A DNA stretch of 64,000 bases from Deinococcales bacterium (GTDB lineage: Bacteria; Deinococcota; Deinococci; Deinococcales; JAAFIG01). Made by a program: the position numbers and the translations under genes. The stretch is taken from assembly GCA_043778225.1 (NCBI GenBank), contig JAYWGM010000070.1:15831-79830 (forward strand), written 5' to 3'. The notes beneath the pieces are model-generated. The model worked only from the letters and a program-made list of their open reading frames with translations. It was not told the DNA's origin and searched no databases. How positions within the stretch are numbered: position 1 is the first letter of the stretch; every line of letters begins with the position of its first letter. Positions 6,743 to 46,668 of this stretch are shown here, piece after piece.

Positions 6743-7888
6743 ATGCAGCGTAAACTCAGGTACGGAATGGTCGGTGGCGGGCGCGATGCCTTTATTGGAG
6801 CAGTTCACCGTAAAGTCATGGCACTGGATGGAATGTATGAACTGGTGGCTGGCGCACTCTCGAGCCACCCCGAAAAAGCGATTTTATCTGGGCAAGACTT
6901 GGGTTTAGCCAGAAATTATGGCACGTGGCAAGCCATGCTCGAGTCCGAAATGGCACTGCCCACCGAACAGCGGATTGATGTTGTCAGCATTGTTACCCCT
7001 AACCATGTGCATTACCCCGTGGCACAGGCTTTTGCATCAGCCGGCATCCATGTGATTTGCGATAAACCCCTTGTCCACACTTCCCAGCAAGCCCAAAGCC
7101 TGCTTGAGACCGTCAAAAAGTCTGGCGTGGTCTTTGCTGTGACCTACAATTACACGGGCTACCCAATGGTCAAGCAAGCTCGAGAAATGGTGCAATCTGG
7201 GCAGCTTGGACAAATCCGCAAAATTATTGTTGAGTACAACCAAGGCTGGCTTGCCACCAAACTCGAGGAATCTGGGCAAAAACAAGCCGATTGGCGCACT
7301 GACCCAGCCAGAAGCGGCGCGGCTGGCTGCATTGGCGACATTGGCTCGCACGCCGAAAACCTGATGCACTGCGTGACTGGACTCGAGCTAGAAAGCATCT
7401 GTGCCGACTTAACAACTTTTGTTGAAGGCAGGCAACTCGACGACGATGGAAATTTGCTGATGCGTTTTGTGGGCGGCGCAAAAGGGGTAATGATTGCTTC
7501 GCAAATCCAGATTGGTGGCGAAAACGATGTCCGTTTGCGGGTTTTTGGTACCCAAGGCGGCATCGAGTGGCATCAGGAAAACCCAAATTATCTCGAGTAC
7601 AACCCAGTTAATGCCCCACGCCAAATCCTGACTCGAGGCTCTGGTTATGTCGGTGCCGCCGCCCAAAAAGCCAGTCGGATTCCGGCGGGGCATCCAGAAG
7701 CTTTTTTAGAAGCCTTTGCCAATGTTTATATTGGTGCTGCCGAAGCCATCCATGCCAAACTCGAAGGGCGCAGCCTTGGCGCACTCGAAGGCGATTACCC
7801 GACCCTCGAGGACGGCGCACGAGGTGTGAAATTTATTGAACGCACCGTAGAAAGCGCTGGCTCGCGCCAGAAATGGACAGCTTTTTAA
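6743..7888 (+). CDS. Gfo/Idh/MocA family oxidoreductase
   Basis: [25 protein letters not shown] motifs. Confidence 0.9.
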
Positions 7889-9072
7889 GGTTTAATTTTC
7901 TCGAGTATATCAGCAGCAATTCGGGCTGCACCACCCGCTAAGCCCATGCGTTCAAGCCCAACCGCTCGAGCCGCTGTCTGGTCGGCTTGGCGAATTGCCC
8001 TGACCAAATCCAAAGGGCTTGGTTGCTCGAGTAAGGTCAATCCAGCCCCAAGTAACCGAGCTTGGGCTTGGGCAAAATTTTTGGTGTACTGTGGTCCTTT
8101 GGTGGCAAAGCCAATTACGGGTTTTCCAAGTCCCACAGCTTGTTCGTTGCCTGTACCGCTCGTGCCAAGTACGACCTGTGCTTGGTGCAGCAAAGCTGCA
8201 AAACTATGGGTGTGCATTAAAACCTGTGCTCCATTGGTGTGCAAGGCTGCTCGAGAGTTATCCACAGAATCTCGAGTTATCCACAGCCAGTTTGTGGATA
8301 ACTCGAGGCGTGAATCAAATTGCGTCAGGGCTGCAAAAGTCTGGTATTCGGGCAGCAGTGCCGCCACCTCAAGCATTTTTGGCAGGCTCTCGAGGTGGTC
8401 GTCACGTGTTCCGGGCAGCAGCAGCAGCACTGGCTGACCATTCAAAATAGGGCTTAAATCCAATTCTGGCTCGAGGCAATCCATCATCAGGTTGCCCAAA
8501 AAACTTGCGTGGGCTACCCCAAGTTCTTGCAGCCATTGGGCGGTGCGGCTATCCCGTGCATAGACATGGCGCACCATATTTTTCATCAGCCATAATTCTG
8601 GAGCAGTAAAACTGTCTACCGTTACACGGTTGAGGCGCTCGAGTTTATTCTTGGCGCTCATTCCGTCTTGGTAGTAGCGACTGACCAAGGGCTGAACCTG
8701 AAAAACAATTGGCTTGGCTTCCTTAAAAGCAAAAAGTTTGGTCACACCAAGCGCATAAATGTCGCCAACCACAATCACTACATCGGCTTTGGCACGACGC
8801 ACCGCCCAGTGTTGTTGGTGGGTCTGTTGGCGCATTCCGTCGCGCCAATCCTCGAGCAACCGCGCCAAGCTGGTAAAGGTAAACCCGCCTGACGGCGGTG
8901 ACCAACGCGGACCCAAAACGCGCACCCCAAGCTGCTCATAAGGATTACCAGCCCCAACAATTGGTACAGCCTCGAGTTCAAAATCTGGGCGTAGCCTCTG
9001 AAATTCTTTTGCCAACCGAGCGCCAAGGGTATCTTCGCCGTGACCGTTGGAAATAAAAAGAATTTTGGGCAT
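7885..9072 (-). CDS. Lipid-A-disaccharide-synthase-related GT-B fold protein
   Basis: SNGHGED start, [39 protein letters not shown]. Confidence 0.75.
8258..8301. promoter_or_regulatory. Cluster of three consensus DnaA boxes inside a CDS
   Basis: TTATCCACA 8258-8266, TTATCCACA 8277-8285, TGTGGATAA 8293-8301; CTCGAG at 8250, 8271, 8302. Confidence 0.7.
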
Positions 9073-9132
9073 AGGCGATATCTAGTTTACCTTGTGTTGT
9101 CACCGCGTAGCGCAAAAAGTAGACTAACAAAC

Positions 9133-9651
9133 ATGAACCCAGAGCGCCCAACGCTAGAAGAACACTTGCCCTACTTCTCGAGGTACATTGACCTTGTGCC
9201 GGAAGGCGACATCAATACCCTGCTCGAGTCGCAATTGATGCCATTTGAAGCCAAGCTCAGAGCTTTGAGTGCTGACCAGTTGCAGCACCGTTACGCCCCA
9301 GAAAAATGGAATACGCTACAAATCATAAAGCACTTGTCGGATACCGAGCGGGTTTTTTCGTATCGAGCCGTCCACTTTGCTCGAGGCGACAGCAGCCCAT
9401 TGCCGAGTTTTGACCAAGATACATGGCTCAAACAGACCACCAGCCAAGACCTCGATAGGTTGTTGCTCGAGTGGCAAAGTGTGCGGCAGTCGGCAGTCTA
9501 TCTTTTCTCGAGCTTAGATGGTGCTGCGTGGTTACGCCGTGGGACTGCCAGTGGTCATCCGATGAGTTCGAGGGCGTGTGCTTATATTATTGTTGGGCAT
9601 CTGATGTATCACCAAGAGTTGCTGCGCCAAAAATATGGCTTGGCGGTTTAA
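9133..9651 (+). CDS. DinB family protein
   Basis: YAPEKW..QIIKHLSDTERVFSYR, GHLMYH; TAGACT -10 7 nt before ATG. Confidence 0.85.
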   Translation: MNPERPTLEEHLPYFSRYIDLVPEGDINTLLESQLMPFEAKLRALSADQLQHRYAPEKWNTLQIIKHLSDTERVFSYRAVHFARGDSSPLPSFDQDTWLKQTTSQDLDRLLLEWQSVRQSAVYLFSSLDGAAWLRRGTASGHPMSSRACAYIIVGHLMYHQELLRQKYGLAV

Positions 9652-45573: not shown

Positions 45574-46668
45574 CTAAGTCTGTGTCCAAGATTTGCGTTG
45601 TTGCTGCGTGTATTCTGCCGTTCGGCGCACTTCTTGGCTTGGGTCTTGGCTGAGTTGTCCAAGGATTTTATCCGAAACTGCCCCGACATACGCCACTTGG
45701 TAACGAACATCTTCGTGTGGGTCGTTTGCCAGTCGCTCGAGAACCCACTCTGGCAATTTGCTGCTTCGGGCATAAGCCAAGGCACGCCTTATATCTGGAT
45801 TGGTGTCTTGCAGTAGAATCTCAAAAATAGCCTTGGTTTGGTCTTCGCGGCGGGCAATAGACAAGCGTATTTGGTCTATTGGGTCATTGGCAAATTTTGC
45901 CATCAAGGTTAAAGGGAGTTCATGATGCTCGGCTAAGGTTTGGCGTATTTTTTCGTCGGAATCAGCTACCAATTGACCATGAAATTCTTTAACCCAGATA
46001 AAAAGTTCGGCAATTTTCAGGCGAACTTCGGGGGCAGGGTCTTGAGTTAAAGCCAAAAGCAATGTAACTTCGCCGCGTCGTCGCAGGTTATCCACACTCG
46101 AGGCACGCACGGCTGCTGCTGGGTCAGTGGCTAGAATTCGCAGTTCTTTGGTTGGTACATTGGCATTGCAGGCGACCATATCCCGCACAGGGCTTTCTGG
46201 GTCGTAAGCCAGTTGCTCGAGTACCACCACTGGACAGGCATGACTCATGGCGACTGCCGAACGAACATAGGTTTCTAAATCTTGGCTGAGCAAGGTAAAA
46301 ATGGCATCTGAACAAAGTGCATGGTTGGTCACGGCTTGGCGCACCTCAGCATCTGGATGCTTTGCCAGTTGCTCGAGCAGTTGCACGGGTGTGTTACGGC
46401 TTTGGGCAACAGCTAGACAAACCGAAAACTGTTTGTGTTTAGCCAATTTCTCGAGAATGGTTACACTGACATTTGGGTTCAGTGCCACGGCTTTGAGGAT
46501 TGTCCATTTGCCATGCCCACTTAAATACTCGAGTGCCGCAACAGGCGCGTTGGGATGACTTGCTACAGCGTACTGCACCGTTGGGTCTGGAGTTTTGGCT
46601 AACTCGAGCAACCGCGCTGCAAGGGTTTTTCTGTTTTTGGCTTCTTTTTTAAGGGCAGCAATATCCAT
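45574..46668 (-). CDS. LRV/HEAT-like helical repeat protein
   Basis: ~24 aa repeats of L..LA.D....VR.AVA.N...P. Confidence 0.75.
   Translation of the reverse strand: MDIAALKKEAKNRKTLAARLLELAKTPDPTVQYAVASHPNAPVAALEYLSGHGKWTILKAVALNPNVSVTILEKLAKHKQFSVCLAVAQSRNTPVQLLEQLAKHPDAEVRQAVTNHALCSDAIFTLLSQDLETYVRSAVAMSHACPVVVLEQLAYDPESPVRDMVACNANVPTKELRILATDPAAAVRASSVDNLRRRGEVTLLLALTQDPAPEVRLKIAELFIWVKEFHGQLVADSDEKIRQTLAEHHELPLTLMAKFANDPIDQIRLSIARREDQTKAIFEILLQDTNPDIRRALAYARSSKLPEWVLERLANDPHEDVRYQVAYVGAVSDKILGQLSQDPSQEVRRTAEYTQQQRKSWTQT

Follow-up and report, generated by a model that had tools for sequence, protein, structure and literature searches.

The window, a 64,000-nucleotide stretch of a contig from an uncultured Deinococcales bacterium, contains what comparison with related genomes identifies as a real, conserved, intragenic DnaA-box module away from the replication origin, overprinted on a variable hairpin of the encoded protein. 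We believe, with a probability of roughly 0.55, that the module serves as a non-origin sink or inactivation site for DnaA, resembling the DnaA-box clusters (DBCs) of Bacillus and acting independently of the CTCGAG sites among which it lies.

Sequence and conservation of the three-box module

Read letter by letter, positions 8250-8307 contain three perfect TTATCCACA boxes, at 8258..8266 (+), 8277..8285 (+) and 8293..8301 (–), all of them intragenic. Together they make up a 44-bp module (8258..8301, minus strand) composed of a convergent pair and one tandem box; on the gene strand the order is a forward box, 7 bp, a reverse box, 10 bp and a second reverse box. CTCGAG occurs at 8250..8255, separated by AG from the box at 8258-8266, at 8271..8276, preceded by GAAT, and at 8302..8307. 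Positions 8271-8285 and 8293-8307 form a perfect 15-bp inverted repeat around a 7-bp spacer. Both the interleaving of three perfect boxes with three CTCGAG sites inside a coding sequence and the inverted repeat are exactly as the sequence-only reading had described them. The window holds four perfect boxes compared to 0.30 in shuffled sequence (none of 100 shuffles reached four), and the single-box rate predicts a three-box cluster within 50 bp only ~4e-6 times per genome. Box number and clustering therefore far exceed chance, in keeping with the earlier view that the 9-mer is rare by chance in the window. A single perfect box with CTCGAG directly after it (46088-46102) is isolated and consistent with background. 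The contigs of two public runs showed no differing letter at the module; this DNA may have come from those very runs, which therefore do not count as independent.

The host gene (7885..9072, minus strand, 395 aa) matched TIGR03492, a lipid-A-disaccharide-synthase-related GT-B protein, in a profile search with E 1e-93, above the cut-off; Pfam has no model for the protein. Its predicted structure has a GT-B fold (pLDDT 92), with UDP-GlcNAc 2-epimerases and GT-B glycosyltransferases as the best Foldseek matches. The peptide quoted earlier for the minus strand is read through in this frame, and the strand still appears to encode a GT-B protein, as had been stated. Residues 258-272, which the boxes span, form a loop and beta-hairpin in the predicted structure (block pLDDT 81-88), and this segment varies in length across the order. 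The box at 8293..8301 encodes Leu258-Ser259-Thr260 (TTA TCC ACA), that at 8277..8285 overlaps codons 263-266 and employs the rare Ile codon ATA (8.5% usage), and that at 8258..8266 overlaps codons 269-272.

Orthologues were searched for in 41 genomes; the gene was found in 33, and 30 loci were read (in G003 the gene was unmatched with the query used). In genus g1, all three boxes are perfect in five of the seven genes found. G002 has two perfect boxes and a middle box with two mismatches, together with three further perfect boxes elsewhere in the same gene, and G006 has the gene with the boxes absent. The sister genus g5 carries the module at the same codons in five of six genes, mostly as TTGTCCACA-type variants, each box deviating from the consensus at one position (one box of G017 at two); from the G015 gene, which lies 9 kb from oriC, the module has been deleted. 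It was absent from all five g2-g4 genes and from all 12 loci of other families. Because G006 and G015 retain the gene without boxes, the site is either dispensable or replaceable.

Among four diverged g1 lineages, 25 of 27 nucleotides are invariant in the boxes compared to 4 of 17 in the spacers. Third codon positions are invariant at 9 of 9 sites in the boxes, some of them Trp positions, versus 84 of 364 gene-wide, and box codons have a synonymous identity of 100%, the figure for comparison being 49-63%. Two residues track the boxes: Ser259 occurs only alongside the TCC box, at a position where 11 of 17 family rows retain Pro; residue 271 is Asp in each of the 11 box-bearing genes and Glu in box-less orthologues. 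This retention of boxes at synonymous positions, which the ortholog alignment had been proposed to test, together with the invariant third positions and the Pro259Ser and Glu271Asp changes, indicates that the boxes are under selection at the DNA level. The conservation points to selection on DNA and by itself leaves undecided which DnaA activity is served.

We also considered that the boxes were selected when the gene adjoined oriC and are now an inert, decaying relic in the source genome. The two independent-looking absences (G006 and G015) and the movement of the source-genome gene away from oriC would fit such decay. The g1 boxes, however, are perfect and nearer consensus than those of the origin-linked g5 genes, although half of the synonymous sites have turned over, and retention is perfect across four diverged lineages, which makes a relic very improbable. 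A gene tree of 28 rows, from which two partial rows were left out, does not resolve genus g1, and one gain with two losses is indistinguishable from two gains. An origin of the module from a mobile repeat or CRISPR leader was rejected: box-bearing genes and box-less orthologues can be aligned codon by codon across the boxes, and neither repeat array of the source genome has a box within 250 bp.

A second intragenic case is found in fdhD, where a convergent pair with a 15-bp spacer, accompanied by a distant perfect box (G000:C11:8585-8848), is present in 6 of 6 g1 genes and none of 10 others. CTCGAG is not beside this pair, which in G007 lies ~9 kb from dnaA. Further perfect convergent or tandem pairs were seen in coding sequences, namely the LacI gene of G003, a trmB-like gene of g5, an sppA-like gene of G018 and locus L007 of G002. 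Intragenic DnaA could also act as a transcription roadblock or operator, making expression of this envelope glycosyltransferase follow the replication cycle. In E. coli, roadblock termination caused by DnaA within genes is described in the introduction of PMC11317965, and some Bacillus clusters regulate neighbouring genes according to the portion of PMC2533591 at hand. We nevertheless regard this role as unlikely: the gene is the last of its unit with a convergent, non-conserved neighbour, a promoter and terminator scan of 7700-9200 found none at the boxes, and similar pairs occur in unrelated genes (fdhD, LacI, trmB, sppA) of other lineages, an indication that location matters rather than the particular gene.

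CTCGAG and the boxes

E. coli oriC is gated by GATC methylation (Dam) together with SeqA, and the sequence-only reading had proposed that (hemi)methylation of CTCGAG gates DnaA access to the module in an analogous way. Two of the three boxes of the module do abut CTCGAG. The hexamer is the commonest of the source genome, with 24,877 copies (6.17/kb, one about every 160 bp) and 398 in the window, and CTCGAG triplets within 58 bp occur 284 times genome-wide. Its density is similar across the whole family f1 and low in Deinococcus loci; 69% of Leu-Glu codon pairs are written as CTCGAG. Only one site of the module is common to relatives, that at 8302..8307, which encodes Leu256-Glu257, is shared by box-less orthologues and behaves as a background word. 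The site at 8250..8255, 2 bp from the box in the source genome, corresponds in relatives to codons where CTCGAG lies 5 or 14 bp from the box or is missing, and is retained in one box-less orthologue. The middle site (8271..8276) is private to the source genome, being missing in all 10 box-bearing orthologues, and it creates the 15-bp inverted repeat.

Selection might have acted on the inverted repeat itself, through a hairpin in RNA or a cruciform in DNA, with the DnaA match incidental. Its fold in the source genome is stable (–28.8 kcal/mol, z –5.6), and many convergent pairs of the family lie between gene ends. We consider this highly unlikely, since the 15-bp stem is exclusive to the source genome, four of five g5 genes break the pairing of the first two boxes with each box still near consensus, and a hairpin requires neither a third box, nor the exact 9-mer, nor convergent over divergent arms.

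Across the family, 14 of 99 AG-flanked boxes abut CTCGAG compared to 14.3 expected; in the strictest context the expectation is 9.1 (P 0.07). Taken by itself, the source genome has CTCGAG next to 4 of its 12 clustered boxes with an AG flank (P 0.08 or 0.02 depending on the background chosen), a count that would favour gating. Clustered boxes favour an AG or GAG 5' flank, in CTCGAG-poor Deinococcus as well (41 of 133, none of them CTCGAG), and an AG-type 5' flank is also listed for E. coli DnaA sites (PMC11317965, Table 1). The flank is a preference of DnaA boxes. In the dnaA loci of G001, G003, G005 and G007 and in the oriC of G000, G014 and G016 a box lies directly next to CTCGAG, and such instances count in favour of gating. 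The oriC clusters of the family (n = 16, kin that are not independent), however, contain 8 CTCGAG in 4,913 bp where ~20 would be expected.

SeqA (PF03925) was not found in the 89%-complete source genome, with the E. coli control detected; a reader of hemimethylated DNA of another family may exist. TaqI_C-type methyltransferases were present in just 6 of 19 genomes and the XhoI family in 0 of 19, the latter in a search without a responding positive control, so that these two families offered no candidate for a family-wide CTCGAG methyltransferase in the 19 genomes; other methyltransferase classes were searched for in the source genome only. There, more than 20 DNA methyltransferase matches of several classes were observed, most of them beside nuclease-like ORFs. 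The literature search found no paper on over-representation of CTCGAG in Meiothermus or on CTCGAG as a highly iterated palindrome. A parallel for gating comes from Nocardia, in which CTCGAG clusters at oriC together with an orphan methyltransferase, as far as the part of PMC4752239 available to us tells.

With adjacency to boxes no greater than the background density predicts, origins poor in CTCGAG, the middle site unconserved, SeqA not found and the same module occurring in CTCGAG-poor Deinococcus, the gating proposal is largely refuted by sequence, and we hold it to be exceedingly improbable. In this family CTCGAG is, judging from its distribution, a hyper-abundant word tied neither to origins nor to DnaA boxes.

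Position relative to oriC and spacer geometry

In the source genome, oriC lies between dnaA and dnaN on contig C89 and has 11 boxes. A large box array with an AT-rich unwinding element adjoins dnaA/dnaN there (C89:46,127-46,334) and not at the module, and the possibility that the module is a replication origin was discarded on this ground. The module lies on a separate contig, C70, at least ~48 kb from oriC, so that several close consensus boxes are found outside oriC, as in a non-origin DBC. The genome contains 62 perfect boxes, 24 of them clustered, around oriC, at C30, C11 and C41, and at the module. Attempts to place C70 relative to oriC gave a flat GC skew and a parS-like search that was uninformative beyond dnaA, and synteny is shuffled even within the genus and gives no position for the contig. 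The box-bearing g5 genes of G018 and G014 lie ~9.5 and ~19 kb from oriC. In G013, the only complete family genome (chromosome of 5.09 Mb), the four non-origin clusters lie 5, 21, 244 and ~483 kb from oriC, all within 10% of the chromosome, and the copy of the host gene, ~0.86 Mb from oriC, is box-less.

We envisage that DnaA binds the module in vivo, with two molecules meeting head-to-head on the convergent pair and a third on the same helical face. The module would titrate or inactivate the initiator once the fork has passed, as in the Bacillus clusters, with a net negative effect on initiation, and point mutations may have built it within the gene while the gene lay near oriC. Conservation against synonymous drift, the residue changes, the near-oriC position in g5, the geometry of a pyk-adjacent locus described below and the independence from CTCGAG favour such a sink. 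One TTATCCACA suffices for binding by D. radiodurans DnaA in vitro (PMC7988490, text seen in part). Binding of E. coli DnaA in vivo is mainly to tandem boxes 2-3 bp apart, in the consulted portion of PMC11317965; the module has no such tandem boxes, which counts against binding in vivo. The box-less G006 and G015 genes and the distance of the source-genome module from oriC also count against a sink.

A GTDB scan for the three-box layout with 7- and 10-bp spacers (7/10) yielded 38 stretches, of which 28 are from Deinococcota, nine from Clostridia and one from Saprospiraceae. The Deinococcota stretches comprise 21 intergenic modules beside pyk, three inside oriC and four in the host gene. The 21 pyk-adjacent modules belong to Deinococcus-type genomes and are without CTCGAG. 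In all six Deinococcus-type genomes read, the locus lies ~4 kb from oriC, between pyk and a convergent gene; four have the exact 7/10 arrangement, one has 6/10 and one has the outer boxes only. Genus g2, of the same family as the window, has a 6/11 version downstream of eno-pyk, and the source genome is box-free at the eno-pyk position. The pyk-adjacent matches represent one homologous locus, and the 7/10 match counts as one coincidence, noticed after about ten clusters had been viewed; we take it as suggestive. Within the gene, the coding frame lets spacers change only by multiples of three.

Convergent pairs outnumber divergent ones by 74 to 25 in 18 relatives, and the convergent spacers are helically phased at ~5, 15 and 25 bp (Rayleigh R 0.51, p ~3e-4; n = 31 values collapsed by hand, with nested pairs included). 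The three-box matches span 41-46 bp, with one exception. Such phasing is what contact between DNA-bound proteins would give. One may speculate, with considerable doubt, that the 44-bp 7/10 arrangement is an undescribed Deinococcales switch of DnaA activity, in which a head-to-head DnaA pair of strict geometry mediates nucleotide exchange or hydrolysis. It would have been rebuilt by point mutation inside a coding gene, rewriting the protein, in a lineage without the ancestral pyk-adjacent copy, and would be the replication-control element of polyploid Deinococcus.

Several related arrangements were seen elsewhere. The nine Clostridia genomes hold the 7/10 layout in at least three different contexts, one of them downstream of dnaA. 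A conserved element at G000:C30:4162-4321 carries two convergent DnaA pairs ~130 bp apart, with a TTGACA-type –35 hexamer after one pair, and often lies upstream of trpF; among the Deinococcus copies is an exact DARS-type core with 5- and 3-bp spacers (G020:C60:174914). This element, possibly a DnaA-controlled promoter or small RNA, was unmatched in Rfam, and the Rfam search of 10 cluster loci returned one unrelated riboswitch only. Eleven CRISPR arrays in three genomes (G034, G030 and G031) from two other Deinococcales families carry a convergent pair of perfect boxes in the leader, always 61-65 bp away from the repeat seed and with a spacer of 7 or 8 bp; the leader pair of G025 has a spacer of 10 bp, and similar leader-like sequence is present at loci L116, L127 and L128. 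Such boxes might tie the acquisition of spacers or the transcription of arrays to DnaA, and no report of DnaA boxes in CRISPR leaders was found in the literature accessible to us.

Significance and comparison with known systems

The means by which Deinococcales, lacking SeqA and Hda, restrict re-initiation are left open in PMC7988490, in the sections available, and searches of the open-access literature showed no paper that, by its title or the start of its abstract, deals with non-origin DnaA-box clusters in this order. The small, precisely spaced and conserved module that many culturable Deinococcus species carry ~4 kb from oriC offers a candidate replication-control site. The copies that seem to have arisen de novo within genes show that codon choice can yield to selection for DnaA sites, which can even alter conserved residues. 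An attractive false lead, CTCGAG as a replication-linked word in this family, is removed.

The module had been described earlier as a datA/DARS-like element. Conservation, codon constraint and geometry uphold this in the broad sense of a non-origin DnaA-box control element; the sequence does not establish it as a datA or DARS site in the strict sense. Both of the E. coli loci are described as non-coding, in the text of PMC4585315 that could be consulted. The module resembles datA, the DDAH locus, in having high-affinity boxes away from the origin and a likely negative role. It differs in lacking the tandem double box and the long interval with an IHF site, for which the 7- and 10-bp spacers are too short. 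The source genome encodes two HU/IHF-family proteins, both below the IHF cut-offs.

With the core of DARS1 and DARS2 it shares three boxes in the order forward, reverse, reverse and a head-to-head pair (PMC6868365, consulted in part). On this basis the module might be a reactivating site, at which head-to-head DnaA on the convergent pair releases ADP and promotes initiation. A head-to-head arrangement of boxes is what drives the release of ADP in E. coli, and the passages of PMC6868365 on DARS1 that we could consult make no mention of a need for IHF or Fis. Such a role is nevertheless rather unlikely. The spacers are 7 and 10 bp instead of 5 and 3, the DARS-critical Gln208 is Asn in all three Deinococcales DnaA proteins aligned, the origin-proximal position better suits negative control, and another Deinococcus locus has a core with 5/3 spacing that matches more closely. 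The module is, moreover, intragenic, and no Fis/IHF region is shown for it.

The likeness to Dam/GATC/SeqA at E. coli oriC and to CTCGAG in Nocardia is confined to the presence of CTCGAG beside boxes. In those organisms oriC is rich in the motif, whose occurrence follows that of an orphan methyltransferase (for Nocardia, from the portion of PMC4752239 cited above), whereas in the source genome CTCGAG is spread genome-wide, poor at oriC and unconserved at the boxes, and SeqA was not found.

The B. subtilis DBCs, as far as the consulted parts of PMC2533591 and PMC3245932 describe them, are intergenic, contain 4-8 boxes and are proven to be DnaA-bound, whereas the module has three boxes, lies inside a coding sequence with accompanying residue changes and is known from sequence alone. 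They are alike in comprising several perfect boxes off oriC with lineage-specific gene neighbours; the B. subtilis clusters are mostly origin-proximal, as the module is in two g5 genomes, and they, too, belong to a bacterium without SeqA or Hda. Loss of the B. subtilis clusters leads to early initiation, and their effect depends on closeness to oriC (PMC3245932 and PMC2533591, same parts).
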